From: Planctomycetota bacterium
Lineage (GTDB): Bacteria; Planctomycetota; JAJSAM01
Direction of reading: 5' to 3'
Length of the DNA: 64,000 nt
Assembly: GCA_024274785.1 (NCBI GenBank)
Contig: JAJSAM010000026.1
Span: 47,048 to 111,047, forward strand
Positions 10,349 through 59,347 of the stretch are shown piece after piece. The notes under the pieces are model-generated. The model did no database searches. It saw only the letters and a list, made by a program, of their open reading frames with translations, and was not told the DNA's origin. Every line of letters begins with the position of its first letter. Position 1 is the first letter of the stretch. Made by a program: the position numbers and the translations under genes.

Positions 10349-11230
10349 ATGACCGACTTCCTTGGCACAAACTTCCCGATCCTCGAGGCGGAGGTCATCG
10401 GGGAGGATCTCACCTCCTACTGGATCGCGGCGCCCGACATCGTCCATGCCTACGGCCCCGGTCAGTTCGTCATCATCCGGCTCGATGAGGAGGGTGAGCG
10501 CATCCCGCTGACCATCGTCGACGTCGACCGGGAGCGTGGCGCCTTGCAGCTGATCGTCCAGGCGGTGGGGCGTACGACCGCCCAGATGGCGTTGCTGAAG
10601 GCCGGGGACACCATCCTCGACGTGGTGGGGCCGCTCGGCGAGGCCATCCCGATCGAGAAGAAGGACGATGCTTTCGTGATCGTGGGCGGCGGCGTCGGGA
10701 TCGCTCCGATCTATCCCAAGGCCAAGGCGTTGAAGGATGCCGGCAATCGCGTGATCACGATCATCGGCGCGCGGACGAAGGATCTCCTGATGCTGGTCGA
10801 TGCGATGGAGGCTGTCTCGGACGAGTTTCACCTCATGACCGACGACGGCAGCGCCGGGCGCAAGGGGCTTGTGACTGAGCCGCTCGACGAGGTGCTGGGG
10901 CGTGAAGGCACGGTGGCCGAGGTCATCGCGGTGGGGCCACCGATCATGATGAAGTTCTGCACGCTCACCGCCCTCGAGCATGATGCGCCGGTCCTCGTCT
11001 CCCTGAACCCGATCATGATCGATGGGACGGGAATGTGCGGAGGCTGCCGGGTCTCCCTCGGGGACGAGGTGAAGTTCGCTTGTGTCGATGGCCCCTGTTT
11101 CGACGGGGCGAAGATCGACTGGGAAGAGATGATGACCCGTCTCGGCGCCTACAAGGCCGAGGAAAAAGAAGCGATGGACCACTGGTGCCGGATCCGCGAC
11201 GGCGCGGCGGCCGAAGGGAAGAAGGCATGA
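10349..11230 (+). CDS. nfnA: NfnA / SudB-like flavoprotein electron-transfer subunit (FAD plus a C-terminal 2Fe-2S cluster).
   Basis: PyrK-like fold with the C-terminal cysteine cluster GMCGGCRVSLGDEVKFACVDGPCF. An ATGA overlap joins it to the next gene. Confidence 0.8.
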   Translation: MTDFLGTNFPILEAEVIGEDLTSYWIAAPDIVHAYGPGQFVIIRLDEEGERIPLTIVDVDRERGALQLIVQAVGRTTAQMALLKAGDTILDVVGPLGEAIPIEKKDDAFVIVGGGVGIAPIYPKAKALKDAGNRVITIIGARTKDLLMLVDAMEAVSDEFHLMTDDGSAGRKGLVTEPLDEVLGREGTVAEVIAVGPPIMMKFCTLTALEHDAPVLVSLNPIMIDGTGMCGGCRVSLGDEVKFACVDGPCFDGAKIDWEEMMTRLGAYKAEEKEAMDHWCRIRDGAAAEGKKA

Positions 11231-12765: not shown

Positions 12766-12903
12766 GGGCTCGTCTGGAAATAAGTGCGACCGTTGCACCG
12801 AGAGCGCCGCTGCGCCCGACCCAGCAAGGCGCGAGGAGGGGGCACCTGACTGGTTTCAGCCGACGAGCAACGCAGCTTTGCGTGATGCAGCTGCCCTTCG
12901 AAC
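12766..12903 (-). repeat. Intergenic repeat family 1, copy A. It lacks the left terminal inverted repeat and starts immediately after the nfnB stop codon.
   Basis: The reverse complement aligns almost base-for-base with 20771..20933. The shared core is TTCGAGGGC.GCTGCATC...GTTGCTCGTCGGYTGAAACCAG..AGGT.C.CCCTCCTCG...GGTGCAACGG.CGCAC..ATTTCCAGACGAGCC. Confidence 0.8.
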
Positions 12904-13111
12904 ACACATCCCGGCAGTTGGCGCAACGCCAGCGGCAAACACTCTCCAACTCTCTCTCACTCCGGGGCGGACCCATCGGGCCGCCCGGATCGCACGTCTT
13001 GCTGCCGGTGCCAGTGTCCCGATGCCACCGGACCTCTGCCGTTCGCCCTGCTCCGAGCTGCGCCGGCCGGCCGCGCCGAACGCGCACCGGCCGCCCGGGA
13101 GCCGGCGTCGA

Positions 13112-13360
13112 TCACGCTTCATCCCCGATTTCGTCCTCGGTATTCAGGTAGGCCAGTCCGACGGAGAGGATCGCCGGCAATCGCGAGATCGTCTTCACGA
13201 TGTCGTCCATCGCCTCGGAGGTCTCCGTGTCCATGACCACGACGATGCTGCCTTTCTCGTCGGTGCCATGCACCTCCACCGCCGGGAACGCCGCGATGCC
13301 CTCGAGCGCCGCGGTGAGGTCTTCCGGTGCGCAGGTGATGATGAAGCCGCCGATCGGCAT
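13112..13360 (-). CDS. napD: NapD-like nitrate reductase maturation chaperone.
   Basis: An 82-aa protein immediately downstream of napA. It follows the E. coli NapD pattern (hydrophobic core, VxVxD, ISxLPxxLSVxLxY). Confidence 0.65.
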   Translation of the reverse strand: MPIGGFIITCAPEDLTAALEGIAAFPAVEVHGTDEKGSIVVVMDTETSEAMDDIVKTISRLPAILSVGLAYLNTEDEIGDEA

Positions 13361-13455
13361 GGAATGGCCTCTCGTGGTAGGGAAGAGGGGAGGCGGGGGC
13401 GGGAGAGATCCGCCCCCGGTGGTTCCTGGTCCGCATTTCTCATGAGAAAAGCGGG

Positions 13456-15858
13456 CTAGAGCTGGACGATGACGGGCGAAAGGCGCTTCGGCCCGGAGAC
13501 CCGCCTGATCCGGCAGGCGCAGATCTTGAACTCCGGCTGCTTGGAACCGGGGTCGAACGCATCCACGCAGACCTTGTTCACCATCCGGTCCTCGGCCATG
13601 TCATGCATGTAGGCGAAGATCATGCCCTCCATCGGACCCGACCGGATCCGCGCCGGCATGACGATCTTCCCGCGCCGGGATTCGATCTCCACCATGTCGC
13701 GGTTCCTGATGCCGTAGGCCTTGGCGTCCTTCGGGTTGATCTCGACGAACGAGTAGGGGTTCCCACGGATCAGTTCCGGGATGCGGCCGGTCATCGTGCC
13801 GGTGTGCCAGTGGTCGATGATGCGGCCGGTGGAGAAGTAGATCGGGTAATCGGCGTCCGGCTCCTCCGCCGCACCCTGGAATGGCCGGAGCCACACCCAG
13901 AGTTTCTTGTCCGGGTGAGCCGGTCCGTAGAACTGGTAGGGGAGATCGTTTTCGGAGTGCTCGTCGGCCAGGGGGTCGAAGCCCTTCACGAACTTCATCA
14001 CCGTTCCACCGGTCGCGGCGTGCTCCTTCGTGGGCGCCGGCCACTGCACGCCGTCGTGCATGGTCTTCAGAAGTTCGTAGGTCGCGCCGCGCAGATCGTT
14101 GTCCTGCCCCCTGGTCGCCTTCTGCGAGTACTCGTCCCAGATGGCCTTCGGCAGCGCGTAGTCCGGTTCCTTGCCCTCGAAATCGGCCACGCATTGACGG
14201 ATCATCGGGTCGTTCAGCAGCTTGGCGAGCCGAAGCGCCCACTCCCTGGCGATCCAAACTTCGGGCATCGCTTCACCCGGCGCGTCGATTGCCTTCGGGG
14301 TGAGTTGCGAACGGCGCTCGGTGCAGCCGTAGACCCCCGTCTTCTCGAAGTGGAAGGCCCCGGGCAGGATCAGGTTGGCGCACTCCGTGGTGCGCGTCGG
14401 GAAGATATCGGTGACCACCATGAAGAGGTCGTCGCTCCGCATTCCTTCGCGGTACGGCGTGACGTTCGGGAGGGTCTGCGCGGGGTTCGTGCAGTGGACC
14501 CAGATCGCCTTGATCTTCTTTTCGTTGACCGCCTTGAACATGGCCATGGTGTGCAGGCCGGGCTTCGACGGGAGGCGGCCCCGGGGGAAGCCCCAGATGT
14601 CCTCCATCTGGTTTCGGAGCGGCTCCTTCGCCACGAGACGGTGGCCGGGCAGGATGTGACAGAGTCCACCACCCTCGCGCACGCCGCCGCACGCATTCGG
14701 CTGGCCGGTGAGGGAGAGGCTGTCCGCGCCCTCCTTGCAGAGCTGGCCGGTGATCATGTGGAGGTTGTGGATCAGGTTGTTCGCCCACACGCCCCGGCGC
14801 CGCTGGTTGATGCCCATCGTCCAGCAACTGAGCGTGCCGTTCGACTTCGCGAACCAGCGCGCCGCCTGGCGGATGCTTTTCGCGGTGATGTTCCCGCCGC
14901 AGATCGCCGCCGCCTTCTCCGGCGTGTAGGCCTCGAGGAACTTCCGGTACGAAGAGAGATCGACCTGCTTGCTCTCCTTGCCGATCCGGAACGTGCAGTA
15001 ATTGTTGATGAACTCGTCGTCCTGCAGCCCCTCTTCGAGAATCACCTGGGCCATCGCGTTCAGCATGGCGAGGTCCGTGCCGGGACGGAACTGCATGTGT
15101 GAGTCGGCGATCCGGGAGGTGGCGGACACGCGCGGGTCGGCGTTGATGACCTTCACGAAGTCCGGGTTGTCGAGCTTCCGGCGCATCACCCGGCGGAAGA
15201 ACACCGGGTGGCACTCCGACATATTGCTGCCGATGATGAAGAAGCAGGATGCCTTCTCCACGTTGGCGTAACCGCCGATGGGCTCGTCCGCGCCCATGGA
15301 TGTCACGTATCCTCCGACCGCGCTGGCCATGCAAAGCCGCGGGTTTCCCTCGACGTTGTTCGTCTGAAGGCCGCCGCGCATGATCTTCTGGAAGAGATAG
15401 GTCTCCTCCGTCAGGGCCTGGCCGGACCCGTAGTAGGCCACCGCGTCGTTCCCGTTTGCCTTGATCGCGTCGGCGAACTCCTTCGCCGCGATGTCGAGCG
15501 CCCGATCCCAGGATATCTCCTGGAAGGGCTCACTCTTCTTCGCCCGGTAGAGCGGTCTGGTGAGCCTGTCCGGCTGGTTGCCGATCAGCTTGTGGAAGAG
15601 CATCCCCTTCATGCAGAGGTAGCCCATGCTGGTCCTGGATTTCGGGACGCCGCGGAGCGCGACCGCCTTCCCGTTCTTCACGCCGAGTTCCACGCGGCAC
15701 CCGGTGCCGCAGAGGCGGCAGGTGCCCCTGACCCATTTTTGCGCCTGGCCGGCGGCATGGGCCGTACTCGCGGGAGTCGTGGCCAGGCTCATGCCCACGT
15801 AGGATGCCGCGGTGGCCGCCGCGACCTGCTTCAGGAAGTCACGTCTCGAAACGCCCAT
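13456..15858 (-). CDS. napA: Periplasmic nitrate reductase catalytic subunit NapA (molybdopterin, Tat-exported).
   Basis: The start MGVSRRDFLK carries a Tat motif, with a GAGGAGG Shine-Dalgarno 7 nt upstream. The 4Fe-4S motif is CRLCGTGC. Long blocks match E. coli NapA (NNLIHNLHMITGQ, SLTGQPNACGG, STGRIIDHWHTGTMTGRIPEL). The 880-aa track ORF carries an unsupported upstream extension. Confidence 0.9.
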   Translation of the reverse strand: MGVSRRDFLKQVAAATAASYVGMSLATTPASTAHAAGQAQKWVRGTCRLCGTGCRVELGVKNGKAVALRGVPKSRTSMGYLCMKGMLFHKLIGNQPDRLTRPLYRAKKSEPFQEISWDRALDIAAKEFADAIKANGNDAVAYYGSGQALTEETYLFQKIMRGGLQTNNVEGNPRLCMASAVGGYVTSMGADEPIGGYANVEKASCFFIIGSNMSECHPVFFRRVMRRKLDNPDFVKVINADPRVSATSRIADSHMQFRPGTDLAMLNAMAQVILEEGLQDDEFINNYCTFRIGKESKQVDLSSYRKFLEAYTPEKAAAICGGNITAKSIRQAARWFAKSNGTLSCWTMGINQRRRGVWANNLIHNLHMITGQLCKEGADSLSLTGQPNACGGVREGGGLCHILPGHRLVAKEPLRNQMEDIWGFPRGRLPSKPGLHTMAMFKAVNEKKIKAIWVHCTNPAQTLPNVTPYREGMRSDDLFMVVTDIFPTRTTECANLILPGAFHFEKTGVYGCTERRSQLTPKAIDAPGEAMPEVWIAREWALRLAKLLNDPMIRQCVADFEGKEPDYALPKAIWDEYSQKATRGQDNDLRGATYELLKTMHDGVQWPAPTKEHAATGGTVMKFVKGFDPLADEHSENDLPYQFYGPAHPDKKLWVWLRPFQGAAEEPDADYPIYFSTGRIIDHWHTGTMTGRIPELIRGNPYSFVEINPKDAKAYGIRNRDMVEIESRRGKIVMPARIRSGPMEGMIFAYMHDMAEDRMVNKVCVDAFDPGSKQPEFKICACRIRRVSGPKRLSPVIVQL

Positions 15859-16301
15859 CACTTCGCCTCCTCTCGGTGCCCACGGAAAAGGTGGGGCGCG
15901 TGGCACTCCCAGCACTTTTTCCCCTGCTGCACGCGCGACTTCATCTGCCCCTGGTGGCAGATCGCACAGGTCGTCATCTCCGGGACTTTGCGGAAGTTCT
16001 CGTAGGTGCCGTGGCACTGGAAGCATTTCACGTTGTCGAGCCCGTGCGTGGAGTTGTACCAGTCCTCGTAGATCTGCGGAGTGGCCACCTTGTGGCACGC
16101 CGTGCAGGCGCGGTACACCGCCTCCTCCGGGATCTCCGGGTGGGGTAGAGGCTCGCTGGCGGCGGGAAGCGCCTCCTCCGGCGGGGGAGACGCCTCGGGA
16201 GCGACCGGCTCCGACGGAGAGGCGGATGGTTCGGGCATGGTGCAGGCCAGGATGCCCACGAACAGAATTGTGACCAGGGTCAGCAGGGCGGCGAACTTCA
16301 C
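15858..16301 (-). CDS. Tetraheme c-type cytochrome and probable lipoprotein, the likely electron donor to NapA.
   Basis: Four CxxCH motifs (CTACH, CFQCH, CAICH, CWECH). A GTG start is preceded by GGAAGGGAG. The N-terminal hydrophobic segment ends in ILAC, which resembles a lipobox. The stop overlaps the napA start. Confidence 0.7.
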   Translation of the reverse strand: MKFAALLTLVTILFVGILACTMPEPSASPSEPVAPEASPPPEEALPAASEPLPHPEIPEEAVYRACTACHKVATPQIYEDWYNSTHGLDNVKCFQCHGTYENFRKVPEMTTCAICHQGQMKSRVQQGKKCWECHAPHLFRGHREEAK

Positions 16302-17020
16302 GAAAATCTCCCTTCCGCGGCTGATGATGTGCTGATGCTTGGAGTGAATGTGTGCCGCTATTCTCGCCGTTGGAGCGGTGGAATTCAATTCAGGAAGGAG
16401 CCGGGAGAAGGCTGGCTATCTGGCGATGAGCGCGCGGAAAGCTCTTCGTGCCGCAGGGCTGATCCGACTGATCGCGAGGAAGGCCCGGCGACCGTCGGCG
16501 CGTTTCAGTACAGTGCTCAAACTGCCCGCGGCAGGAGGCGAATCCCGACGTTCGATCCGCTCCACGCATTCAGCGTGGAACATGGGCAGGAGGCGGCGGA
16601 TCGACTGGGCATCCACTGATTCTCCGGCGCATCGGCCGAAGGCATGGACGGCGCTCTGGAAGGCCTCGCGTGCAAGGGGGGCGGTCAATCCGTGCCGGAA
16701 TCCGGCGATCGTGACCAGCTTCCGCTGAATCTGCTCGAAGGCGATGGGCTCTGTTGAACCGGAAATGGCGACCGCTCCTTCCCGAGGCTGCGGGGTCCGC
16801 GCAGGAAGCCCGCATGGTATCGGGACTTCACTTGAGCAAGGACCATGCCGGGGAGTGGTTGCGGGGGAGTGGTCTGTCTGAAGTGATTTGTAGGTAAGGG
16901 ATTGTGTCGTCTGTTCGGTTCAGCGGGGCTGCGCACCGGGTGGACGGGCTGCATCGCCGGTTCAGAATTCTGGACGGAGAGGCTACGGGAAGCCCCCATC
17001 CTCACGGGGCACGCGGGCCC

Positions 17021-17614
17021 TCAGATGCAGATGCCCCTGGCCTTCAGGATGCCGCGGAGCTCCAGGCGGGCCGAGCGGATTCGGGAGTCGAGGGTATTCG
17101 CCTTGAGCTTCAGGCGTTTCATCAGACCGTGGCGGCCGACATCTTCCTCGATGAGCAGTTCGAAGAGTTCTCGCGCCTGAGGCTTCAATTCCTGCAGGGC
17201 TTCGACGATCCGGGTTCCGTCCTCGCGGCGGATGACCTGATCGATGACCGGCCGTGCCGTGCCGCCGCGCTCGGGTTTGAATGGCGACTCATCGATCTTT
17301 GTACTCTCTTCTGCGATTCGTTTGAGTCGATGAGTTGTCTTGATGGACTGATCAATGAACTCCAGGCACTTCTTCTTGAAGATCCCGATCAGGATGCCCA
17401 TCTGGTTCGTCTCGTTCCGGTAGCGGTGTCCGTGCTCGCAATACGCCGCAAGTGCTGTTTGGGCAATGTCTTCCGCATCACACTCTCGTATGCGGTACTT
17501 GAAGCCCGCAATGAGAATGAGGCGGCGACGCACCTCTTCGAACTTCGCTGGATTGCCGAGTTCCTCAAGCATGACCTTGTCTTCTAAGCCCTTTCCCGCC
17601 GCTTCAGCGGACAA
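17021..17614 (-). CDS. ECF-type RNA polymerase sigma factor.
   Basis: The layout is that of sigma-70 region 2 and region 4, and the length is 180-197 aa. An alternative start lies at 17572 (MLEELG). Confidence 0.7.
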   Translation of the reverse strand: MSAEAAGKGLEDKVMLEELGNPAKFEEVRRRLILIAGFKYRIRECDAEDIAQTALAAYCEHGHRYRNETNQMGILIGIFKKKCLEFIDQSIKTTHRLKRIAEESTKIDESPFKPERGGTARPVIDQVIRREDGTRIVEALQELKPQARELFELLIEEDVGRHGLMKRLKLKANTLDSRIRSARLELRGILKARGICI

Positions 17615-17741
17615 CTCGCCCCCGTGTCAGGTTGCAGGCTTGTTCCCCCTACAGAACGTTGCCCCTCGTACGTCAGACTCTCCCTTTTAATCCTCGGACC
17701 GCCCGATGTCAATCCTCGTCGTCCAGAGCTTTTTGCATCCC

Positions 17742-18287
17742 TCAGCCGTACGGGTCCGCCGCGGGCAGTTCGCCGCGGGTTCGCGAGGGGTGGTGGTACC
17801 GGCCCCGGAAGAAGAGCAGGGGCCAGAGTTCGCCCTCGAGGTCGTGGAGTTCCGTCACCTCTCCCACCACGATCCAGTGGTCGCCGCCGTCGTGCATCCG
17901 GTGGACTCGGCAAGCCATCGCGCCGATGCAGTCCGCCAGGCGTGGCGCCAGACTTTCGTCTTCCCAACGGGTGAGCGCGTACGGCTCACCCCCATCGCTT
18001 CCGAGCCCGTTGTCGCGGGTTTTCGCGAAGTGGTTGGAGACCGCTTCCTGGTGATCACCGAGGATGCTGATCGTGAATGCAACGCCTTCTTCCATGAGCT
18101 GGGCAAATCGTGACTTCTTGGAAGGACAGACGATGAGCAGGGTCGGGTCGAGCGAAAGGGAGCTGACCGCGTTGGCGGTCATCCCTCGCAACTCCCCGTC
18201 TTTTTCGGCGAGCAACACCGTCACGCCGGTGGCGAACAGGCCGATCGTCTGGCGGTAGCGCGCATGAAGCTCCTGGGAGTCGGTCAT
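17742..18287 (-). CDS. Flavin reductase-like, FMN-binding split-barrel protein.
   Basis: The start MTDSQELHARYRQ has an AAGGAG motif 6 nt upstream. The sequence matches the flavin reductase family (GLFATGVTVLL...MTANAVSSLSLDP...). Confidence 0.7.
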   Translation of the reverse strand: MTDSQELHARYRQTIGLFATGVTVLLAEKDGELRGMTANAVSSLSLDPTLLIVCPSKKSRFAQLMEEGVAFTISILGDHQEAVSNHFAKTRDNGLGSDGGEPYALTRWEDESLAPRLADCIGAMACRVHRMHDGGDHWIVVGEVTELHDLEGELWPLLFFRGRYHHPSRTRGELPAADPYG

Positions 18288-18591
18288 CTCGGTCTCCTTC
18301 CCGCCCATCGTACGGGCTCGCGTGAAAGAGCTCGCGAATCCTTCCATTGTCGATTCCGCCGGGTACATTCGCACCGACTCATCGGAGCGGAGAGTGCATG
18401 CCGAAGATCCGTGAAGACGCTCCCGAGCGTATCGACAAGGTCCGGAAGAACCGCTGAACCGGGGGATGAGAGGTGACCGTCGCGCACGAACACGCCGGGA
18501 AGAATGCGAAGCGATACCTCGAGGATCTATTCGAGTTCCTGCGGTGACCGACCGGGAGCGCCCCGCGACGCGGGCCGGGGTCCGGGCCTAC

Positions 18592-18790
18592 GGGTTTCAC
18601 TGGCCGGACCGGGATGTCCTGCTGCTGTGCGGCGGCGGCAGCATTCCCGTGGTGGCGAACATGAAGGACCTGCCCGGCCTGCCCGTGGTGCTGAATGGCT
18701 TCGGGCTCCCGGGCTGTGGGGCGCACGGTCCCGACGAAAACCTGCCGATTGTGATGTACGAGCGCCCATCGACACGTTCATCCAGTTCAT
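18592..18790 (+). pseudogene. Remnant of the C-terminal roughly 70 aa of an M20-family metallopeptidase (ArgE/DapE-like).
   Basis: The translation ...IPVVANMKDLPGLPVVLNGFGLPGCGAHGPDENLPIVMYE matches the conserved M20 C-terminal block (VxLGPG...AHxPDE). There is no room upstream for the missing roughly 300 aa. Confidence 0.4.
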
Positions 18791-18808
18791 GCGCGAGAGG
18801 GCGGGTCG

Positions 18809-20002
18809 ATGAGTGACCGCCGAAGTTCCGGAACACCGGAAGCTCCATCTGATCGGGCGAGGTTCTTCTTCGGGGGGCTGGTGGCGGCCTGGTTCATCGG
18901 CCTGTGCCTGATCCCCGATCCGCGACCGCTTGGGGCGCCGGAGTGGGCGGTGGGCCTGCTGCGCAAGGTGGCCGGGCTGTCCGAACCGATCGCGAGAGCC
19001 GGGGCCACCATCGCGCTGCGCGGGCTCGGTCTGGCGTTGATCGGCGTGTTGCTGTCGCTGACCTTCCGGCGCTTCCCCCTGAAAGTCGCCGCGCCGGTGG
19101 TACTCGTGGCGTCTCCGATCCTGGCCGTGGCCGCGCAGTGGATCAACTACGGATACTTCCCGATCCCGATGCAGCTTCAGCTTGGTCTGGCGGCCGCTGT
19201 CCCGGGAGCGCTGCTCGGGCTGAGTCTGCGCAGGAGCCGCCTGGCCCTGGCGGCGCTCGTCGTCGTTGCGATCGGTCTCTTCTCCTTTGGAACGGCGACC
19301 GGGATACCCGACGATCTCCACGAGGCTGCGCGCGCGACGGCGCGCTACGTGCTGGAGAACGCGGATGACGTCCCGAAGGGGGATGCCGGGTTCGCCCGCC
19401 TGCTTCACCTGACTTTCACCTACGCCGAGGACAACTCCCACCAGACGGGCGCCGTCTTCGCCAACCGCGCAGCCATCCTGGCTCTCGGGGTCATCCTCGG
19501 CGAGGAGTTGGTTGTTCGCGTGGCGAAGCGGCGCCTGGACTCTTCGAAGCTGGAGACGGCCAACAGCCTCGCGGGCGCCCGGAAGCTGCGGAGGAGGATC
19601 AGGCTGCGGGGCCGCGGAGACCTTTCGCAGCACTTCTGGGTCAGTGCTTCGCTGGCGGTGCTCTCCGACGACTCCCGGTCGATGACCGTGGGCATCACCA
19701 AGGAGATGATGGACGCCATTCCGGGTGGATCCGGCTTCTCCTTCTCGGACCTGGTCGCGGACCGTGCGGGGACGCTGTTTACGGTGGCCGCGACGCGGGA
19801 TGAGGAGTCGGCGCGGGCTATGCAGGCCCGGATCCGGAATGGGGTGGTAATCGATCAGTACTGCCCGAACGTGGAGGAGCTCCCGGACGGCATCCCGCGC
19901 GACGAGTTTCAGCAGGAATATGGTGGCCTGGGTGGGGTTCGGACGAAGAAGATCGTGGCCGAGATCCGGAAGCGTCTCGCCACCTGTGAAGCCCTGAAGT
20001 AG
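18809..20002 (+). CDS. Hypothetical membrane protein with an N-terminal multi-transmembrane region and a C-terminal soluble domain.
   Basis: A 397-aa protein with several hydrophobic helices in the first 170 aa and good codon bias. The minus ORF 18527..20056 is an antisense shadow. Confidence 0.6.
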   Translation: MSDRRSSGTPEAPSDRARFFFGGLVAAWFIGLCLIPDPRPLGAPEWAVGLLRKVAGLSEPIARAGATIALRGLGLALIGVLLSLTFRRFPLKVAAPVVLVASPILAVAAQWINYGYFPIPMQLQLGLAAAVPGALLGLSLRRSRLALAALVVVAIGLFSFGTATGIPDDLHEAARATARYVLENADDVPKGDAGFARLLHLTFTYAEDNSHQTGAVFANRAAILALGVILGEELVVRVAKRRLDSSKLETANSLAGARKLRRRIRLRGRGDLSQHFWVSASLAVLSDDSRSMTVGITKEMMDAIPGGSGFSFSDLVADRAGTLFTVAATRDEESARAMQARIRNGVVIDQYCPNVEELPDGIPRDEFQQEYGGLGGVRTKKIVAEIRKRLATCEALK

Positions 20003-20116
20003 CCCGCAGGCACATTCGGAACCACCCCCCGGGGGGCGGTACACCCGGGCCGCCACGCTGGGCCCGAAGCCGATCGCGATTCTGGATGCGTGGCTGGCGC
20101 GGCGGCTGTCGCGAAA

Positions 20117-20716
20117 TCACCCAACCCGCGTCGCACCGGTGCGGCGGCGGCGGATCAGCACGACGCCGATCGTCAGGCCGACGCCGAAAAGCAGCAGGGT
20201 GGATGGTTCCGGAGTCATGGAGATCAGGACCGCGCCGTCGTCGCCGGCGTTCCCGAACCAGGGCGTCCCGGACCCGGCGCTGTAGATGTAGTTTCCGCCG
20301 GAGTACGGATCGAAGGGGGATCCACCGAACAGACCGCTTCCGGTGGTCACCTGCGCGGTGATCGCGTAGACCGTGCCGGTCGTGATCGCGAGATCGGGAC
20401 TGAAACTGTACGTGCCGGCGATTGTTACTTCCAGGGGTGCGCCGGTGTAGAGCGCGGCTCCGGTGGGGAGTCCACCGGTCGTTTCGTAGACCGCTCCGGC
20501 AAAAAACAGATTGCCATCCGCGGCGACGGAGAGCAGGAATCCAAATTCGGAAAGGACGGGCCCGGCCGCGGTGAACGTCTGGCCGACCCAGTCCGAAGTC
20601 GAGACCCCCACGGCCGCGGTGCCCGGACGCGTATCGATCACGACTCCCGCCTGAGCGGTGGATGCGGCGAAAACCAGAAGCGCGAGAGAAGTCGCTGTGA
20701 CGAAACCGGTTCGCAT
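20117..20716 (-). CDS. PEP-CTERM sorting-domain secreted protein.
   Basis: The start MRTGFVTATSLALLVFAASTAQA is a signal peptide, with an AGGAGG Shine-Dalgarno. The C-terminus PEPSTLLLFGVGLTIGVVLIRRRR is the canonical PEP-CTERM exosortase signal. Confidence 0.8.
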   Translation of the reverse strand: MRTGFVTATSLALLVFAASTAQAGVVIDTRPGTAAVGVSTSDWVGQTFTAAGPVLSEFGFLLSVAADGNLFFAGAVYETTGGLPTGAALYTGAPLEVTIAGTYSFSPDLAITTGTVYAITAQVTTGSGLFGGSPFDPYSGGNYIYSAGSGTPWFGNAGDDGAVLISMTPEPSTLLLFGVGLTIGVVLIRRRRTGATRVG

Positions 20717-20770
20717 GGGGCCTCCTGTTCCGTGTGTGCCTGCTGGTGGAATTCTAGCCCGCATCTCTTG

Positions 20771-20933
20771 GGGCCCGTCTGGAAATAACTGCTGCATTCG
20801 AGGGCCGCTGCATCCCGCTACGCTTTGTTGCTCGTCGGTTGAAACCAGCAAGGTTGCGCCCTCCTCGAGCCTCGTTTCTCGGGCGCCGCGGCGCTCTCGG
20901 TGCAACGGGCGCACAAATTTTCCAGACGAGCCC
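20771..20933 (+). repeat. Intergenic repeat family 1, copy B. Full length with 15-bp terminal inverted repeats GGGCYCGTCTGGAAA.
   Basis: The left end is GGGCCCGTCTGGAAATAA and the right end TTTTCCAGACGAGCCC. The core is shared with copies A, C and D. Confidence 0.8.
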
Positions 20934-20971
20934 TGACGATTGCACGCGATCTGAGGAGCGGATCCGGTACC

Positions 20972-22897
20972 TCAACGCCCGCGATCCCCGCCCGGACCGT
21001 CCGCCGTATCCGGCCGGTAGCCTCTCGCCCCGGCCATGCGATCGAGTCTCGCGGCGATCGCCCGGTCCCCCGCGAACTCACGCATGCGGGCCAGCTCGAA
21101 CAACCCCCGCGGTGCGGCGGGATGCGTCGCACCGCGTCGGAGTCCCTTTTCCATCTGGTCGATCGCCGCATCGATGTCGTTCCGCCGAAGCTCGATCCGG
21201 ACCAGGATCAGGCGGCACGGCAGCCGGAAGGGGTCCGCGGTCAGTGCTTCGATGAGGGGCGCTCGGGCCTCCTCGTCCCGGCCGAGTTCCGTCAGGACGA
21301 AACCGAGCCCCTCCTTTGCGCCGGCGTGCATGGGCTCTTCCGCGAGGATCGCTCGAAACAGGACCTCCGCGTCTCGCGGGTGTCCGCTCTCGGCGAGGAT
21401 CAGGGCCCGGGCGGCTCGACCTTCGGTGTCCCGGGGATCGAGGCGGCGGACCTCTGCCTCGTAGTGTCTTTCCGCGCGCTGAACACGGAGCATGATCTCC
21501 CGGTCCACGAGCGGGGCGCCCTGCATTGCCGACCGGCATCGCAAGGCGTAACGGCGCTGTTCGTACGGCGTGCCGAGGTTGGTGATGACCAGCGGAACCA
21601 GGCCAAAGAGCGAGAGCGCAACCGCGCCGACGGCGGTCGCGGTGCCCCGGCGCGTCTGGAAGAGGGCGATCCCGCCGATGAGTGTCAGGGGGATACCCAT
21701 CAGGGAGAAGAGGTCCCAGTCAAGGCGGAGCGAGAAGTTCACGTTCCAGAAGTTCGGGAACAGGACGAGGAAGACCGCCGCGACGGCGACGAAGCGGACG
21801 ACCGGGTCGCGTTTTGGGAGGCCGCGGGAAAAGAGGAGCAGGAGGACGCCGGCCGGCGCGGCGAGGATGATGAGGTTCAGCACCCCCACGAAATGCTCGA
21901 GGTCGAGGATCGCGTAACGGCAGAGCACGTTGGTCGCGGTTTTCGTCAGGGGCAGAATCGGTCCGAGATCCATGCCGCCGAGGAAGGAACCGTAGCGATC
22001 CGGACCGGCGACCGGGATCGTGCCGCTCCAACTTGCGAAGAAGAGCCAGGTGTAAACTGCGACGACGGGGACGAGGAAGAAGAGGGCGGCCACGGCCACC
22101 CGTTTCAGCCGGATGGGGGAGAACCGGCCGCCGTTGGCGAGGAGTAGGAGGGACGGCAGCAGGAGTCCGGCGGATCCGTGCAGGCCGAAAGCGATTCCGA
22201 GGACCACGGCGGGAGCGATGACGGATCGATCGTCTCGGAGTGTCCGAATGCCGAGCAGGAAGTACACGGTGAGGGCGGCGGCGAGAGGGGCGTATACCTC
22301 GATGGACCCGAAGAACAACACGGCTGTGCCGCAGGTGATGAGCAGGCCGGCCAGGCCGGCGCGGGCCGCACCGTCCGGGTAGAGCTTCCTTCCGATCCCC
22401 ACCGCGGCGACCACGAAGACCATCCCGGAGAGGACCGAGACGAGGCGCACCGCTTCGGCTGGAAACAGGCTGAACAGCTCGCGGATGCCCGACTGGATGA
22501 AGCAGGTGAGGGGATTGCTGGCATAGGCTTCCCCGGTGGCTGTCCGGAGCATGGTCGCGCTCGCATCGCCCGAGAGCCGGACCGTCGGCAGGAACCAGAA
22601 GAGGCCGCCGCAGCCGAGTACCAGGATGGGCAGTCGGGCGTGGCGGGGAATGAGCCGGGTTACGCGTCCGAAGAGCGACCCGACCCGATCCGCCGCACCC
22701 GGAACCAGGAACAGGACGAGAAGGAGCGCGAAGGAACCCGAGAGCGCGAGGACTCCCGGTGCCCGCCACGCCTCGATGCCGAAGGACGCATCGAAGTCCG
22801 GTCCGCGCGGAGCGGCTGCGCCAATCGCGAAGAGCGCGGTGAGCACCACGGCGGCGATGACGAGGACGATGGCGGGACGTGAGTTCGCGCGCGGCAT
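20972..22897 (-). CDS. Polytopic membrane protein with C-terminal TPR repeats. It resembles GT39/ArnT-like glycosyltransferases or O-antigen-polymerase-like TPR proteins.
   Basis: A 641-aa protein with about 11 hydrophobic helices, followed by a TPR-like helical region (AEVLFRAILAEEP...). Two long plus-strand track ORFs inside it are shadows. Confidence 0.65.
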   Translation of the reverse strand: MPRANSRPAIVLVIAAVVLTALFAIGAAAPRGPDFDASFGIEAWRAPGVLALSGSFALLLVLFLVPGAADRVGSLFGRVTRLIPRHARLPILVLGCGGLFWFLPTVRLSGDASATMLRTATGEAYASNPLTCFIQSGIRELFSLFPAEAVRLVSVLSGMVFVVAAVGIGRKLYPDGAARAGLAGLLITCGTAVLFFGSIEVYAPLAAALTVYFLLGIRTLRDDRSVIAPAVVLGIAFGLHGSAGLLLPSLLLLANGGRFSPIRLKRVAVAALFFLVPVVAVYTWLFFASWSGTIPVAGPDRYGSFLGGMDLGPILPLTKTATNVLCRYAILDLEHFVGVLNLIILAAPAGVLLLLFSRGLPKRDPVVRFVAVAAVFLVLFPNFWNVNFSLRLDWDLFSLMGIPLTLIGGIALFQTRRGTATAVGAVALSLFGLVPLVITNLGTPYEQRRYALRCRSAMQGAPLVDREIMLRVQRAERHYEAEVRRLDPRDTEGRAARALILAESGHPRDAEVLFRAILAEEPMHAGAKEGLGFVLTELGRDEEARAPLIEALTADPFRLPCRLILVRIELRRNDIDAAIDQMEKGLRRGATHPAAPRGLFELARMREFAGDRAIAARLDRMAGARGYRPDTADGPGGDRGR

Positions 22898-23001
22898 GGG
22901 ACGCGGATTCTACCAGCAATCCGGGCTGGTCGGGCGGGGCCAATCAGAAGGCGGGGCGCCGAGAGGTCCGTCGGCCTCGAGCGAACAGGAGGGTGGCCCG
23001 G

Positions 23002-24474
23002 CTACGCGGGATCTCCGACCTTCGCGTTCAACACCGGATCGATCCCCACCCGCCGGGCCAGGTCGGAGATGAACAGGCCGTTCGGGTCGAGGCGCTTCTT
23101 GATCAGGAGGAGTTCGTTGTAGCGCGGGTAGACCCGGTGGAACTGCTCCGGGGTCAGGACCTGGTCCTTGGCGAGGTGGATCCGCCCGCCGCGCTTCACC
23201 GTGGCGTCGATGATGCGGTTCACCGCCTCCCGGCTCCGCTCTTCGTGACGCTTCTTCGGGTGGAACTCGAAGTTCAGGCTGTACCCGTTCTTCGAGAAGG
23301 AGAGCAGGCCCTCGTCGGCCTGGTGGGCGCGGAGGATCGTGGTGACCGGCGGACAGGGCGACGACTGGCAGATGGTCAGGATCTCGTCGATGGCCTCCTT
23401 CGCGCCGTGCTTCGGGAAGTTGAGCTGGACGGTGTAGCCGTGCGGTCCGCAGACGAGGTGGGCCGGCGGTACTGTGAAGCTCGCCTCGAAGTTGAAACGG
23501 AGGAACAGCTCGGAGGTGGTATTCCGGCCGGTCCAGCTCGCCAGGCGGCTCATGGTGTAGTAGAAGCGATTGAAGAGATAGAGGGCGGGGCGCTGGGCGT
23601 TCAGCATGAAGGAAAGGACCGGGCCGAACTTCTCATGCAGCGCCAGGCCGAATCTGCGGTGGTGTTCGAGGCGTCTGAACCCGGCGTCGAGGAACTCCCG
23701 GCGTTCCTCTTCGGTGTCCTCGCGATCCACCCACTGTGCGGTGTGGACGACGGATCGCCCGAGGCGCTTGCCCTTGCCGTAGGCGTCGATCCAGACCACG
23801 GCGGCGTCATGATCGTCCTTCAACTCGTCGAGCAGGGCGAGGAGCGCGTCGGTGTCGGCGGCCGGCGTGCGGAGGATCTTCACGAAGTTGGACTTGATCG
23901 GCACGAGTTGCAGCGTGGCGTCGATCACGATCCCGAGGAGTCCGATGCCGCCCATGATCGCGTTGAAGAGCTCGTGGTCGCGGTCGACCTCGACCGTTTC
24001 GCCGTCGGCCCGGAGCAGGGTCATGCGGATCACGCGCTGCGAGAAGTTGCCGTAGTGCCAGCCGTCCTTGCCGTTGACGTTGGCGCAGATGGCCCCGGCC
24101 ACGCTCGAGTGCGACTCCGTCGGGCTGCCCGGCAGGGTCAGCAGAAGGTGATGGACGTGCTCGTAGATGTCGATCAGCCGCGTGCCGGCCTCGACGGTGA
24201 TCCGCGCCCGCTCCTCGTCGAAGTCGAGGATCCGGTTCATGCCGCTCATGTCGAGGAGGGCGTGGCCGTCGTTCAGCGCCAGGTCTCCGTAGCCGCGACC
24301 GGCGCCGCGCGCGCAGATGGTCATGCCGTTGTCGCGGCACCACGCCAACGCCTCCTGGCACTGCGGGAGCGTCTTCGGGCGGGCGACGAGCGACCGCGTG
24401 GAAATGGATCCCACGAGTGAATGCAGCTCTTCCCACTGCATGAAGCTCGGGAGCGGCGAGTCTTTGGACGGCAT
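23002..24474 (-). CDS. FAD-binding PCMH-type oxidoreductase, similar to the DprE1 and alditol oxidase families.
   Basis: The start MPSKDSPLPSF has a GGAG motif upstream. The FAD-binding block is ICARGAGRGYGD. The 897-aa track ORF extends into the antisense of the neighbouring gene. Confidence 0.75.
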   Translation of the reverse strand: MPSKDSPLPSFMQWEELHSLVGSISTRSLVARPKTLPQCQEALAWCRDNGMTICARGAGRGYGDLALNDGHALLDMSGMNRILDFDEERARITVEAGTRLIDIYEHVHHLLLTLPGSPTESHSSVAGAICANVNGKDGWHYGNFSQRVIRMTLLRADGETVEVDRDHELFNAIMGGIGLLGIVIDATLQLVPIKSNFVKILRTPAADTDALLALLDELKDDHDAAVVWIDAYGKGKRLGRSVVHTAQWVDREDTEEERREFLDAGFRRLEHHRRFGLALHEKFGPVLSFMLNAQRPALYLFNRFYYTMSRLASWTGRNTTSELFLRFNFEASFTVPPAHLVCGPHGYTVQLNFPKHGAKEAIDEILTICQSSPCPPVTTILRAHQADEGLLSFSKNGYSLNFEFHPKKRHEERSREAVNRIIDATVKRGGRIHLAKDQVLTPEQFHRVYPRYNELLLIKKRLDPNGLFISDLARRVGIDPVLNAKVGDPA

Positions 24475-24609
24475 GGATATCTCCGGTTGGATCACGGTCC
24501 GGCGCATCATAACCAGATCACCGCGCCACCGGCATTTCCAACGTTCGATGAACCCGGGGGCGACACTTTTCCGTGCCGGACGCCGGGTCGGTGATACAAA
24601 GGGCGAATC

Positions 24610-25491
24610 ATGAAGACCAAATCCGCAGTTCTCGCCATCCTCGCGGCGATCCTCCTTCTGCCGGCAGTCCGTGCGGAAAACGACACTGAGAACCTCTGGG
24701 AGAAGCGGGTGGCGGCCTCGTCCGACTCCATCGTCTTCGTCCGGTTCGTCCTGAAGATCCGGATGACCCGCGGGGATGAGACACAGGACTTCGAGCGCAT
24801 GCGCGAGGTGCAGGGCATTGTGGTGAACGATCAGGGGCTCATCATGAGCTCGAATGCGCACTTCGATCCGGCTTCGACCGCCCTGCTGCCGCCGCAGTTG
24901 CGCGGAAAGGTCGAAGTGAAGGCCACGCCGACGGACCTGAAGGTGCTCTTCGGCAATGAGGAGGAGGAGTACGAGGCGCAGTTGGTCGCCCGCGACTCCG
25001 ACCTCGACCTGGCCTTCGTCCAGATTCTCGACCTGAAGGGGAAGACGGTGAAGCCGATCGACCTCACGGCCGGGGTGGAGCCGGAACTGGGACAGGAACT
25101 CTACGGTATCGCCCGAATGGGGCGTGGGTTCGATTGTGTGCCGGTTGTGGTCCGGCTCTATGTCAGCGCGAAGATCGCCAAGCCCCGCCGGATGTGGAGT
25201 GCCTCCGGCGAACTCCCCGCTCCGTCCCTGCCGGTGTTCAATCAGGACGGTGTCCCGGCCGGGATCGTCTCCCTGCAGCAGGCGTCGGCCGGTGTCGAGG
25301 GGGCGGGCAGTCGGCGCCGGCCTTTCCTGCTTCCCCTCACCGATGTCGCAAAGAGCTTCAGGCTGGCAGTCAGGCGCGCCGCGGAGGCGTTGGGTGCGGC
25401 CGGTGCCGATGACGGGGGCGATGACGGGGGCGACCGGGCGGATGAATCCGAAGAGACCGGCGAAACGCGCGACTCCGGCGAAGGCGAGTAG
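24610..25491 (+). CDS. Secreted hypothetical protein, possibly a degenerate trypsin-like fold, with an acidic Gly/Asp-rich tail.
   Basis: Signal peptide MKTKSAVLAILAAILLLPAVRA. No intact catalytic triad is recognisable. Confidence 0.55.
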   Translation: MKTKSAVLAILAAILLLPAVRAENDTENLWEKRVAASSDSIVFVRFVLKIRMTRGDETQDFERMREVQGIVVNDQGLIMSSNAHFDPASTALLPPQLRGKVEVKATPTDLKVLFGNEEEEYEAQLVARDSDLDLAFVQILDLKGKTVKPIDLTAGVEPELGQELYGIARMGRGFDCVPVVVRLYVSAKIAKPRRMWSASGELPAPSLPVFNQDGVPAGIVSLQQASAGVEGAGSRRRPFLLPLTDVAKSFRLAVRRAAEALGAAGADDGGDDGGDRADESEETGETRDSGEGE

Positions 25492-25500
25492 GCGAATCCT

Positions 25501-25878
25501 TTGCTGAACCTCGTCCTCATCGCCATCGCCGGTGGGCTCGGTGCGCTGGCCCGCTACGGATTGACCAACCTGGTGCATAGGGTGCTCGGGATGTCCCTCC
25601 CGTGGGGCACTGCGGTGGTCAATATTCTCGGGTGCCTGGTCTTCGGTCTGCTCTGGGGATTGTCCGAGAGCCGGATGGGCTTTCAGCCGGAGCACCGACT
25701 GATCGTCCTCGTCGGTTTCGTCGGCTCTTTCACCACCTTCTCCACTTTTATCTTCGAGGTGGGAATGCAGGTGCAGGAGAGCCAGTGGATCGCCGTTCTC
25801 GGCAACATGGTGGGACAGAACGTGATCGGAATCCTGGCGCTGGTGGCGGGACTCTTACTGGCGCGCCTTGCGGCGTAA
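25501..25878 (+). CDS. crcB: Fluoride ion channel CrcB (Fluc).
   Basis: Motifs GGxLGALARYG and GFVGSFTTFSTF. The length is 125 aa. Confidence 0.85.
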   Translation: MLNLVLIAIAGGLGALARYGLTNLVHRVLGMSLPWGTAVVNILGCLVFGLLWGLSESRMGFQPEHRLIVLVGFVGSFTTFSTFIFEVGMQVQESQWIAVLGNMVGQNVIGILALVAGLLLARLAA

Positions 25879-25960
25879 GACGGTGAAGGAGTGATGCCGG
25901 AACAGCCACGCGGATCTCCAGCCGGTCCGGGCTGAACCGCCACTGGTCCCGCCGCGTGGA

Positions 25961-27772
25961 TCAGTCGATCTCTTCTTCCGCGAATTGGCGGGAAATCTCG
26001 ATGTTGTAGGCGCTGAGCAGGTCGGTGTGGCGGAGCAGGCCGACCAGGCGATTGTCTTCGGCCTTCACGACCGGCACCTCACCGTACCCCGAGTGAAGAA
26101 TGGTCTGCAGCGCGCTGTGCAGATCCTGGTCGGGGAGGACGCTGACCGGGGGGCCCATGATGTCCCCGGCGAGAAGCAGGTCGTCGAGGTCCCGCTCGAA
26201 GAGCGCCGACCTGACCTGCTCGATCGAAAGGATACCCACCAGCCGGTCGCCCACCTGTCCGATCACCGGGAAGCAGATCCCCGAAGAGTGGGCGACCAGG
26301 GACCGCAGCGTGGGCAGTCTCGATGCGATGGGGATGGAGATGATCTCCCCGGCCGGGTGCATCACCTGGGAGACCTTCAATTCGCGCAGCACGTTGATGT
26401 TCAACTCGCCCTGGTGGGCGGGAGAGGCGAACTTGTTCCGCACCTGGTTCCGGAAAATGGACCATCGTGAGGTGAAGAGCACGGCGATGACCGTAACGAG
26501 CATGAGCGGGGCGATGATTCCGTAGCTCCGCGACAGTTCGAGAGTCATGAGCAGAGCGCCGAGGGGAGCGTTCGCCACCCCTGCGAAGAAAGCGCACATC
26601 CCGACGATCACCATGGCCGCGGGGTCCGGTGCGTAGCCGGGGAACAGATTGTTGGCCACCACCCCGAAGACGCCGCCCAGCATGGCCCCGATAAACAGGG
26701 TCGGTCCGAACACGCCTCCGGAGCCTCCCGAACCCATCGTCAAGCTCATGGCCACGATCTTCATGAGAAGCAGCAGGAGCATGGTCCCGACGAGCACATT
26801 GCCCTGAATGGCGTCCTGGATGAACCCCCAACCCGAGCCATATGCCCCCGGCGCGACCAGTCCCACGACGCCGACCATCAGACCGCCGATGGCGGGCAGG
26901 GCCCAGGCCGGCACATGCTTGAGCTTCTCGAACATCCCGCTGATGCCCCAGAATACCTTGACCGTGAGTGCCCCCACCGGCGCGCAGAAGACGCCGAGCA
27001 CGAGGTAGAACAGGAGTTCGTGGGGATGATTGAAAGCGAGGTCGTGCGGCAGGTTGAAGATCGGATCAAATCCGAAGATGCCCGCGAAGATCGCGTAGGC
27101 GGTGACCGAGGAGATGACGCAGGGGACCAGCGCGTCGGTTTCGATGTCTTCCCGGTAGAGGATTTCCACGGCGGTGATGGCGCCGCCCAGAGGAGCGCGG
27201 AAAATGGCTCCGAAGCCCCCCGCCGCGCCGGCGAGGAGAAGGATGCGGCGGTCCCGGGCGTTCATGTGGAACAAGCCGGCCAGCATGGAACCGAATCCGC
27301 CGCCGATCTGGGCGATGGGCCCCTCCCGGCCGGATGCTCCCCCGAAGCCCAGCGTGAACAGCGTGCCGATCGCTTTGACGAGCGGGACGCTTGGCCGCAT
27401 CCGCCCCCGCTTCTTGTGGAAGGAGTCGATCAACGCTTCCGTGCCGACACCGGCAGCCTCCGGGGCAAACCGTTGGACGATGACGCCGGAGATCAGTCCA
27501 CCGATGGCGGGCAGCAGGAAAAAGAGCCACGGCACGGGGACGAACGGCCCCGTGGCGTGGAACAGCCCCTCGCCTCCGGGGTGCGTGCGCGGGGTTCCCG
27601 CCGCCAGGTCGAAGACGAGGAAACCGGTGAGATCCAGCAGGTAGTAGAAGCCGGCCGCGCCGAATCCCGACACCGCTCCGACCAGGACTCCGTAGAGGAC
27701 CCAGCGGCCCAGGCTTCGAAAGCCCAGGGACGGCTTGAATGCTTGACGGACTTTTTGCAGCAGGGCCTTCAT
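25961..27772 (-). CDS. CLC-family anion channel or H+ antiporter with a C-terminal CBS-domain pair.
   Basis: GGASGREGP and GGVFGPTLF selectivity-filter motifs. There are about 11 helices and a C-terminal CBS pair (GILSIEQV...VGLLRHTDLL). Confidence 0.85.
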   Translation of the reverse strand: MKALLQKVRQAFKPSLGFRSLGRWVLYGVLVGAVSGFGAAGFYYLLDLTGFLVFDLAAGTPRTHPGGEGLFHATGPFVPVPWLFFLLPAIGGLISGVIVQRFAPEAAGVGTEALIDSFHKKRGRMRPSVPLVKAIGTLFTLGFGGASGREGPIAQIGGGFGSMLAGLFHMNARDRRILLLAGAAGGFGAIFRAPLGGAITAVEILYREDIETDALVPCVISSVTAYAIFAGIFGFDPIFNLPHDLAFNHPHELLFYLVLGVFCAPVGALTVKVFWGISGMFEKLKHVPAWALPAIGGLMVGVVGLVAPGAYGSGWGFIQDAIQGNVLVGTMLLLLLMKIVAMSLTMGSGGSGGVFGPTLFIGAMLGGVFGVVANNLFPGYAPDPAAMVIVGMCAFFAGVANAPLGALLMTLELSRSYGIIAPLMLVTVIAVLFTSRWSIFRNQVRNKFASPAHQGELNINVLRELKVSQVMHPAGEIISIPIASRLPTLRSLVAHSSGICFPVIGQVGDRLVGILSIEQVRSALFERDLDDLLLAGDIMGPPVSVLPDQDLHSALQTILHSGYGEVPVVKAEDNRLVGLLRHTDLLSAYNIEISRQFAEEEID

Positions 27773-27792
27773 CGGGACAGATCGGTCCTCAG

Positions 27793-27946
27793 GGGCCGCG
27801 CAAGAATAACTACGGGGTTCGAGGGCGGCTGCATCCCCTTGAGCCGCGTTGCTCGTCTGTTGAAACCAGTGAGGTTGCGCCCTCCTCGCGCCTTGCCGGG
27901 CGGGCGCATCAGCGCTCTCCGTCCTGCGAAGATATTCTTGCGCAGC
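27793..27946 (+). repeat. Intergenic repeat family 1, copy C. The core is conserved, but the terminal inverted repeats differ from copy B (GCGCAAGAATA ... TATTCTTGCGC).
   Basis: The core TTCGAGGGCGGCTGCATCCC...GTTGCTCGTCTGTTGAAACCAGTGAGGTTGCGCCCTCCTCG aligns with copies A, B and D. Confidence 0.8.
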
Positions 27947-28456
27947 CTCTTACTCCTGGTCTGGTCATGATTGTCTTCTCCAATACCGCCACCGGGAACT
28001 CCGGTGGGCCCGCTCCGCCGCGGGGCGGGACAGACCACCGCCACGATCGGCTGATCAGGGGTGGTGAGACTGGCGTACAGGCAAGCTGCCGTCACGTCAA
28101 GACGATGCCGTCATTGTCCTCTTCGGAGCAGGCGAACGAAGTTTCTCCGCAGCGCCCGGCCACGCTTCGGAAGATGGCGCCGGCATTGCCTCCCGGCGAT
28201 GGGTCCGGGAGACCTCGCATCTTCGGGTGCGCGGGGTTTCTTCCTTCGTCGGAAGGGGATGACCTTGCTCCCCCCCCCGGGACGGCGCGAGGCCGGAGAG
28301 AAACCCGGAGAGAACATGCGCAAGGCTCTTCGCATTGAGCGATCTCGGCTTACAATGGTGCCGGGTAGGGCGACTCGTGCCAGGGATGGCCTGCCGGCCA
28401 TGCGGATCCGTCGGCATGACCAGATCCGTCCTGGCAAGAGAGTGCGGGGGTCGCTC

Positions 28457-35245: not shown

Positions 35246-35282
35246 CGAGTACACTCCGAACTCACCGTCACAGCGCGACCCA

Positions 35283-59290: not shown

Positions 59291-59347
59291 GGGCCCGTCT
59301 GGAGTTAACTGCCGCATTCGAGGGCCGCTGCATCCCGTCGTCCGTCA
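59291..59347 (+). repeat. Intergenic repeat family 1, copy D. It is a 5' fragment only (left terminal inverted repeat plus the first core block).
   Basis: GGGCCCGTCTGGAGTTAACTGCCGCATTCGAGGGCCGCTGCATCCCG matches the first 57 bp of copy B. It then diverges into unrelated sequence. Confidence 0.7.

Follow-up and report, generated by a model that had tools for sequence, protein, structure and literature searches.

Intergenic hairpin repeats of about 160 bp in a Planctomycetota contig are probably a MITE family with modular arms

The DNA analysed here, referred to below as the window, is a stretch of 64,000 nucleotides from contig JAJSAM010000026.1 of a Planctomycetota bacterium (assembly GCA_024274785.1, positions 47,048 to 111,047). 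The window contains three copies and one 50-nt fragment of a repeat of 158-163 bp. We suggest, with a probability of about 0.87, that these repeats are copies of a MITE (short for miniature inverted-repeat transposable element), a non-autonomous element that carries no gene itself and depends for its movement on a transposase which is encoded elsewhere and acts in trans. The family was previously unlisted, occurs in uncultured bacteria and is of an ordinary kind. Only the modular arms carried on a shared core and hints of arm homogenisation are unusual. By the published definition (PMC10969869), prokaryotic MITEs are shorter than 500 bp and have terminal inverted repeats of 4-30 bp; direct repeats are seen in young copies, and the transcripts form stem-loops. 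The repeats described here are likewise shorter than 500 bp and have terminal inverted repeats, a target duplication, and presence/absence variation with a single-copy empty site.

A first-pass annotation of the window had held that ends which differ between copies and still remain complementary are not the behaviour of a simple MITE, and had named target-site duplications as an observation that would overturn this view. Such duplications were found and the view therefore fails; the single-triplet empty site of copy C and the nested copies described below refute it as well. The duplications were scored in 33 non-redundant full copies from subfamilies 1 and 2 (two groups that differ in their arms, see below), using a partner permutation of 10,000 trials. 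The 3-mers on the two sides of the element are identical in 17 of the 33 copies against 4.6 expected; the permutation maximum was 14, and none of the 10,000 trials reached 17. Flanking 4-mers are never identical in this set. On either side of the element, 22 of the 33 flanking triplets are T-N-A. The duplicated triplets include TCA/TCA, TGA/TGA and TTA/TTA, and also the non-TNA triplets CAA/CAA, TTT/TTT and AAA/AAA, from which it follows that they are repeated directly and lie outside the inverted repeat. The target logo from 16 perfect cases has C at -1 (12/16), followed by T (14/16), any nucleotide, A (15/16), and G at +1 (12/16). The target consensus is thus C-TNA-G, in which the central 3 bp are duplicated. 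Fresh duplications are present in each of subfamilies 1 and 2.

The loci of the window, with the triplets that flank copy C, are:

12766..12903, minus strand: copy A (nhmmer match at 12767-12902, profile positions 27-157, E=1e-30)
20771..20933, plus strand: copy B, full-length subfamily 1, 163 bp, ends GGGCCCGTCTGGAAATAAC ... TTTTCCAGACGAGCCC
27789..27791: left target triplet of copy C, TCA on the plus strand and TGA on the strand of the CLC gene
27792..27949, plus strand: copy C, full-length subfamily 2, 158 bp, ends GGGGCCGCGCAAGAATAAC ... ATATTCTTGCGCAGCCTC
27950..27952: right target triplet of copy C, TTA on the plus strand and TAA on the strand of the CLC gene, one substitution away from the left triplet
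59291..59340, plus strand: fragment D, the left 50 nt of subfamily 1 (left end and start of the core; profile positions 1-50, E=6e-7)

Copy C is located 19 nt upstream of the ATG of a gene encoding a CLC chloride channel (25961-27772, minus strand), and its orthologous site is empty, with a single target triplet, in relatives that were reached by a homolog search with the CLC protein. An exact look-up of this protein had given no record. One of these is the contig L068, a close relative with ~82% nucleotide identity across 6.8 kb of kept gene order. Its alignment covers window positions 28098-27949 and 27791-20989, and these two blocks are joined in L068 by one TGA. Where the CLC strand of the window reads ...CCAGGAGTAA-(copy C)-TGAGGACCG, that is GGAGTAA(element)TGAGGACCG, L068 has an uninterrupted CCAGGAG-TGA-GGATCG. 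The site is also empty in L064, an 85% amino-acid ortholog, and the window minus the element and one triplet aligns across the junction. For the site of copy A, the contig L074 ends 24 nt past the stop codon, within an octamer repeat, and the 80% ortholog L075 is not syntenic downstream. Elsewhere in the family, copies are nested inside other copies (L032 and L058).

The first-pass annotation had placed four loci in the window, and a profile search and alignment found all of them, copy C being slightly longer than described and fragment D ending near 59340. A profile hidden Markov model (nhmmer), trained on 38 family members, gave exactly four matches in the whole 64 kb: 12767-12902 (-), 20771-20932 (+), 27793-27945 (+) and 59291-59340 (+). 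A four-way alignment of these loci yields the common core. Its 22-mer GTTGCTCGTCNGNTGAAACCAG has three occurrences in the window, where shuffling predicts 0.00. The termini that had been quoted for copies B and C are correct and each pair is self-complementary. Gene calls from third-position GC content (GC3), together with Pfam, agree with the earlier statement that all four loci are intergenic. The spacing of 7-8 kb between the first three copies is real (8005 and 7021 bp), but it consists of two intervals only and nothing points to a meaning.

Copy A consists of the core and a subfamily-1 right arm, GGGCTCGTCTGGAAATAAG on the plus strand. Its left arm is unrecognisable, with a best match of 12/22 to the subfamily-1 end, and may be decayed or hybrid. 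As had been noticed before, copy A directly abuts a stop codon, with no spacer: the TGA at 12763-12765 of an NfnB/GltD-like gene (11035-12765) whose product has Fer4_20 and Pyr_redox_2 domains (Pfam). In relatives, a DHODB_Fe-S_bind (NfnA-like) gene adjoins it upstream. The 3' end of the gene, window positions 12750-12765, is a tandem octamer, GGCAGTGA in two units that include the stop codon. The 92%-identical relative L074 has AGCAGTAA in three units at 2457-2492, preceded by TTCAGTAA, and the contig stops there. Fragment D likewise abuts a stop without spacer, the TAA at 59288-59290 of a 68-aa open reading frame (ORF, 59084-59290). Targeting of stop codons by the element was considered and rejected: only about 5-8 of 86 element ends abut the stop of a convergent gene, which the TNA target will bring about now and then. 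Each of the four possible TNA triplets reads as a stop codon on one of the two strands, so the two stop-abutting cases of the window are a by-product of target preference.

Copy B is located between the stop of a TPR/PMT_2 gene (20972-22897, minus strand) and a small minus-strand gene. It is part of a 2.2-kb stretch (window 18797-20989) that is absent from the syntenic contig L068, where 150 nt (6914-7064) are found in its place. Besides copy B and the small minus-strand gene, this stretch contains a gene for a 397-aa membrane protein (18809-20002) with no Pfam match.

Beyond the window, the core pattern was used to scan species-representative genomes and metagenomes. The genomes gave 7 loci, one being a chance match in coding sequence; four are in the Myxococcota metagenome-assembled genome (MAG) Dive96_bin1.27, one in a Gemmatimonadales MAG and one in a Gammaproteobacteria MAG from the Guaymas Basin. 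The metagenomes gave 55 loci, 3 of them by chance, and most come from three assemblies. The wider search that the first-pass annotation had proposed thus added ~60 copies. In every subfamily (see below), the two ends are reverse complements of each other. It should be noted that the family was ascertained via the core apex pattern, and core conservation is therefore partly built in. Bystander copies found through their ends or the profile only (the second copy in L004, the second copy in L013, and L032) have diverged or replaced apexes. Full copies are 157-163 bp long, and the few longer ones hold internal insertions. Variant elements at L013 2548-2757 and L045 1900-2180 carry an extra insert of ~60-85 nt (GCCGATCGCAGGATCCACTGGACCC...) after GAGGGCC. 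The terminal inverted repeats are 19-24 bp long in nearly all full copies, including B and C.

At least three subfamilies can be told apart by their arms, all around the same core of ~110 nt. In brief, subfamily 1 starts with GGGCTCGTCTGGGAATAAC, has GGGCTCGTCTGGGAATAAC...GTTATTCCCAGACGAGCCC-type ends and includes A, B and D of the window. Subfamily 2 starts with GGGCCCGCGCAAGAATAAC, has ends GGGCCCGCGCAAGAATAAC...GTTATTCTTGCGCGGGCCC and includes copy C. Subfamily 3 starts with GTGTCC[CGGGGCC/TGAGTCA]-AGTTC (GTGTCCCGGGGCCCAAGTTC...) and has variants 3b (GTGTCCTGAGTCAGAAGTTC) and 3c. In abbreviated form, the end types read GGGCYCGTCTGGRAATAAC, GGGNCCGCGCAAGAATAAC and GTGTCC...AGTTC. Subfamilies 1 and 2 occur together in the window, and different subfamilies share contigs elsewhere; in L013, a subfamily-1 and a subfamily-3 copy are located ~370 nt apart on one contig. 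Many of the retrieved metagenome contigs start or end inside a copy (e.g. L006, L016, L018, L025, L029, L036, L037, L052, L057 and L059), and the repeat breaks short-read assemblies.

The retrieved loci show no synteny with the window beyond the element itself. A distant blastn search of a plasmid collection with the subfamily-1 and subfamily-2 consensus sequences gave chance-level matches only (E>=0.4), and the best of these, in Cupriavidus, lies in ordinary sequence. Viral contigs gave no match to the ends of subfamily 1 or 2 or to the core. With the degenerate subfamily-3 end there were four matches; for three of them no inverted partner lies within 4 kb, and they seem to be fortuitous. The fourth is a 202-bp element at L069 1130-1331 (IMG/VR contig IMGVR_UViG_3300040943_000159), which has subfamily-3b ends, the left exact and the right with 3 mismatches, around an unrelated core. 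This indicates that the ends are the mobilisation module. A text search of the literature for the end and core sequences gave none.

Ends that differ between copies and are still complementary were the central observation of the first-pass annotation. The pattern is real and wider than was noted, since it extends to at least three arm types, internal helices and variants within subfamilies. The explanation offered for it, that the termini had been altered in a compensatory way copy by copy, is contradicted by the comparison of arms and core. The difference between copies B and C is that between two subfamilies, each internally consistent. Arm identity between subfamily consensuses is 33-53%, while core identity between subfamilies is 86-92% (with the 22 search-pattern columns excluded) and thus equal to the 88-92% seen within subfamilies. 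We conclude that the arms were replaced as blocks and not by stepwise compensation. One hybrid, in L045, joins a subfamily-1 left end to a subfamily-3 right end.

How arms might be exchanged as blocks can be outlined as follows. Amplification would require that the same transposase recognises both ends, so that successful founders would be symmetric and their descendants would inherit both arms. We speculate that two insertion sequences may have landed at mirror-image sites of the palindrome, their inward-facing ends being used together from then on. Recombination would be an alternative route, and hybrid elements exist. The long hairpin would be a property of palindromic DNA, and may also be kept by arm-to-arm homogenisation or mild selection. 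A more elaborate version of this scenario is that the ~110-nt core is a passenger that has swapped complete arm pairs at least three times, in register at both ends, exploiting several transposases within the same genomes, while complementarity was kept beyond transposase binding by a hairpin-dependent transposition step, stem-loop selection or templated homogenisation. We put this forward as a tentative proposal that has the odds against it.

The hairpin itself was examined with RNAalifold, as the first-pass annotation had suggested. The alignment of 38 full copies folds into one long hairpin of 43 pairs, in which standard pairs occupy 95.2% of the cells, compared with 36-46% when the partner is slid by 1-3 columns. 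Both-sided changes are found in 18 of the 43 pairs, internal helices 3-5 included, compared with 6-11 when slid. The expected long stem with both-sided changes is thus present, but a palindromic DNA transposon whose arms were replaced or homogenised explains it equally well. Variability within subfamilies is 1.5-1.9 times higher in unpaired columns than in paired columns. At pair 53/109 most copies have A-T, copy C of the window and L007 have A·C, an apparent intermediate, and L002 has G-C. Three origins would fit these pairing facts: the copies may descend from a few symmetric founders, gene conversion may have acted between palindrome arms or between oppositely oriented copies, or complementarity may be truly required.

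Several observations weigh against the MITE interpretation as we propose it. Neither full copy of the window has a perfect duplication (TTG/TGA around B, where the duplication is decayed, and TCA/TTA around C), and for the seven copies of subfamily 3, models with 2-, 3- or 4-bp duplications gave none that was clean. Three features of the pairing are left unexplained by end recognition through a transposase. First, internal pairs switch: pair 47/116 does so, as do 38/124 (from C-G to T-A) and 53/109 (from A-T to C-G or G-C). Second, in subfamily 2 the two ends within a copy match at 332 positions, compared with 317.8±3.0 for shuffled partners, and 0 of 5000 shuffles reach the observed value. 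Third, symmetric variants are found at end positions 4-6, namely GGGGCC, GGGTCC and GGGCTC in subfamily 2 and GGGCCT in subfamily 1; several copies with such variants have perfect duplications. Finally, the mobilising enzyme was not met with. None of the three kinds of end was found on an autonomous element in ~0.45 Mb of retrieved loci plus the window, in the viral contigs or in the plasmids. A tblastn search of the retrieved loci and the window with the E. coli IS5 transposase gave nothing, and the similarity to the E. coli IS5 end GGAAGGTGCGAATAAG, limited to GG...TG.GAATAA, is not significant.

The search for extra end matches in all loci gave a sole long-range pair, L003 727/2786, which is a split copy and not an insertion sequence. 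Here, on a Gemmatimonadales MAG contig (L003 727-2804), a subfamily-2 copy is interrupted by an insert of ~1.9 kb. This insert starts with GTGCG, ends with CTAC and codes for a reverse transcriptase of 577 aa that contains a YADD motif; it is a group II intron in the MITE hairpin.

The pairing can also be read as a sign that the hairpin of the MITE is itself required or selected. This could be at the DNA level, through a snap-back or single-stranded intermediate or through cruciform recognition, or at the RNA level, where a readthrough stem-loop would affect mRNA stability or termination. Such a view refines the MITE interpretation and does not exclude it; we regard it as rather improbable, although it is the strongest of the alternatives. 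The 43-pair hairpin with its both-sided changes in internal helices, the two-step path at pair 53/109, the excess matching of subfamily-2 ends and the lower variability of paired columns all speak for it. So do the positions of copies A, C and D right after stops or just before a start codon, which make it almost certain that some copies are transcribed. Most of the both-sided changes separate subfamilies, however, so that independent events are few, and related sequences can beat shuffle controls without any structure. The element shows no strand asymmetry and has no terminator-like T-run or promoter-like site inside, and only the small fraction of ends given above abuts a convergent stop. 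The same pattern would also arise, with no selection, if gene conversion acted between the two palindrome arms or between oppositely aligned copies.

The first-pass annotation had preferred a structured RNA, and such a reading, in which the repeats are non-coding RNA genes or cis-regulatory hairpins with a terminal stem kept by compensatory mutation, would not involve a transposon at all. The stem is indeed strongly conserved with covariation, and individual copies fold better than their shuffled versions (z = -3.3 and -4.2). On the reverse strand, however, folding is just as good (z = -3.25), and over the 38 copies the mean minimum free energy is -87.5 kcal/mol on the plus strand versus -89.6 on the minus strand, with the plus strand better in 14 of 38. 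As both strands fold alike, the structure is a property of the palindromic DNA rather than of a single transcript. The Rfam scan gave no match, either for the whole window at gathering thresholds or for copies B and C at E<=1, and promoter and terminator scans of the window copies found no site inside. Copies occur in both orientations relative to neighbouring genes, and the dissimilar arms beside a well-conserved core speak for block replacement, not gradual substitution. The 3-bp duplications, the empty site and the nested copies show transposition. We consider a structured RNA very improbable.

Hardly more credible, and in our estimate slightly less so, is an element of the repetitive extragenic palindrome (REP) or bacterial interspersed mosaic element (BIME) type, which the first-pass annotation had also named. 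Such an element would be spread by a REP-associated tyrosine transposase (RAYT) of the HUH class. REP/BIME units resemble the repeats described here in being intergenic hairpins with variable but paired stems; REP stems are known to vary while staying paired. The window also encodes a distant relative of such enzymes. The ORF at 34145-35188 (plus strand), 347 aa and thus about twice the usual length, matches NCBIfam NF047646 with E=8e-11 and 42 bits, below the curated cut-off of 80, and gave no Pfam (E<=10) or PDB (E<=1) match. It is bracketed by an inverted repeat with 65-nt arms at 34035-34099 and 35177-35241, which are 80% complementary and unrelated to the element, being matched neither by its profile nor by blastn. 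The element differs in being far longer, 160 bp with true terminal inverted repeats of 19-24 bp instead of a 20-40 nt palindrome with a GTAG head, and in having 3-bp duplications; HUH enzymes of the IS200/IS605-RAYT type are not known to make any.

A second repeat in the window, in direct orientation, is 104 nt long (35279-35382 and 59395-59498), with 89% identity and internal hairpins. An outer-membrane beta-barrel gene has one unit just upstream of it, in a position that is also just 3' of the inverted repeat bracketing the RAYT-like gene. The other unit is downstream of pdxA, ~55 nt from fragment D on its 3' side. No copies were found in the retrieved loci, and it may be the REP/BIME-type unit of this genome. 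Integron attC sites were considered and rejected in view of the mixed orientation, the 7-8 kb distances, ends unlike RYYYAAC/GTTRRRY and the target duplications.

To return to the MITE, its partner would be a DDE transposase, as judged from the TNA duplication. Enzymes of the IS5/IS1031 or the IS630/Tc4 kind are candidates because both kinds duplicate TNA. An IS5/IS1031-like transposase appears most likely, at roughly even odds; otherwise the enzyme would be IS630/Tc4-like. The enzymes used by subfamilies 1 and 2 are probably related, as the two subfamilies have the same length, the same duplication and common positions 1-3, 6-7 and 13-19. Subfamily 3, which lacks a clean TNA duplication, probably uses a different one.

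Each candidate has its likenesses and differences. Within the IS5 family, the IS1031 group has a 3-bp duplication of the T-N-A type as seen here, and so have PIF/Harbinger elements, their eukaryotic relatives; the TNA/TWA target of IS5/IS1031 and PIF/Harbinger is recorded in ISfinder and Repbase. The IS5 ends have the GG(G) start and GAATAA in common with the element, but the similarity is weak and the partner would be a putative member. In bacteria, members of IS630 duplicate TA. Targets of the IS1031 group are typically 3 nt long (PMC2516522). The nematode elements Tc4 and Tc5, of the Tc1/mariner-IS630 superfamily, have the same CTNAG target logo as the element; Tc4 inserts at the interrupted palindrome CTNAG and duplicates the central TNA only (bioRxiv 10.1101/2023.11.06.565293). 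They differ in being eukaryotic and in having very long inverted repeats, and no related transposase was seen in the loci analysed here.

Among the known bacterial elements, type II MITEs built as long imperfect palindromes are the closest in kind, for example Correia (Neisseria), ERIC/IRU (enterobacteria) and QMITE2 (Coxiella). Like the element described here they are ~100-200 bp long and non-coding, have terminal inverted repeats and a short duplication at an AT-containing site, are dispersed between genes and form one long stem-loop. Correia elements even have alternative end types, and end variants define their subtypes as they do here. There is no sequence similarity to any of the three, and the Rfam and plasmid searches were empty. 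The present element also differs in being G+C-rich and not AT-rich, in duplicating the 3-bp TNA within C-TNA-G and not TA, and in carrying at least three mutually dissimilar arm pairs on one conserved core.

For annotation, the value of these observations is that such 160-bp hairpins are mobile DNA and not RNA genes. The element occurs in several uncultured lineages from hydrothermal and other sediments, with MAG labels of Myxococcota, Gemmatimonadales and Gammaproteobacteria, and its insertions adjoin start and stop codons in addition to breaking assemblies. If confirmed, the modular arms and their homogenisation would make the family a natural system for studying how non-autonomous elements switch between transposase hosts, and whether hairpin complementarity matters in DDE transposition.

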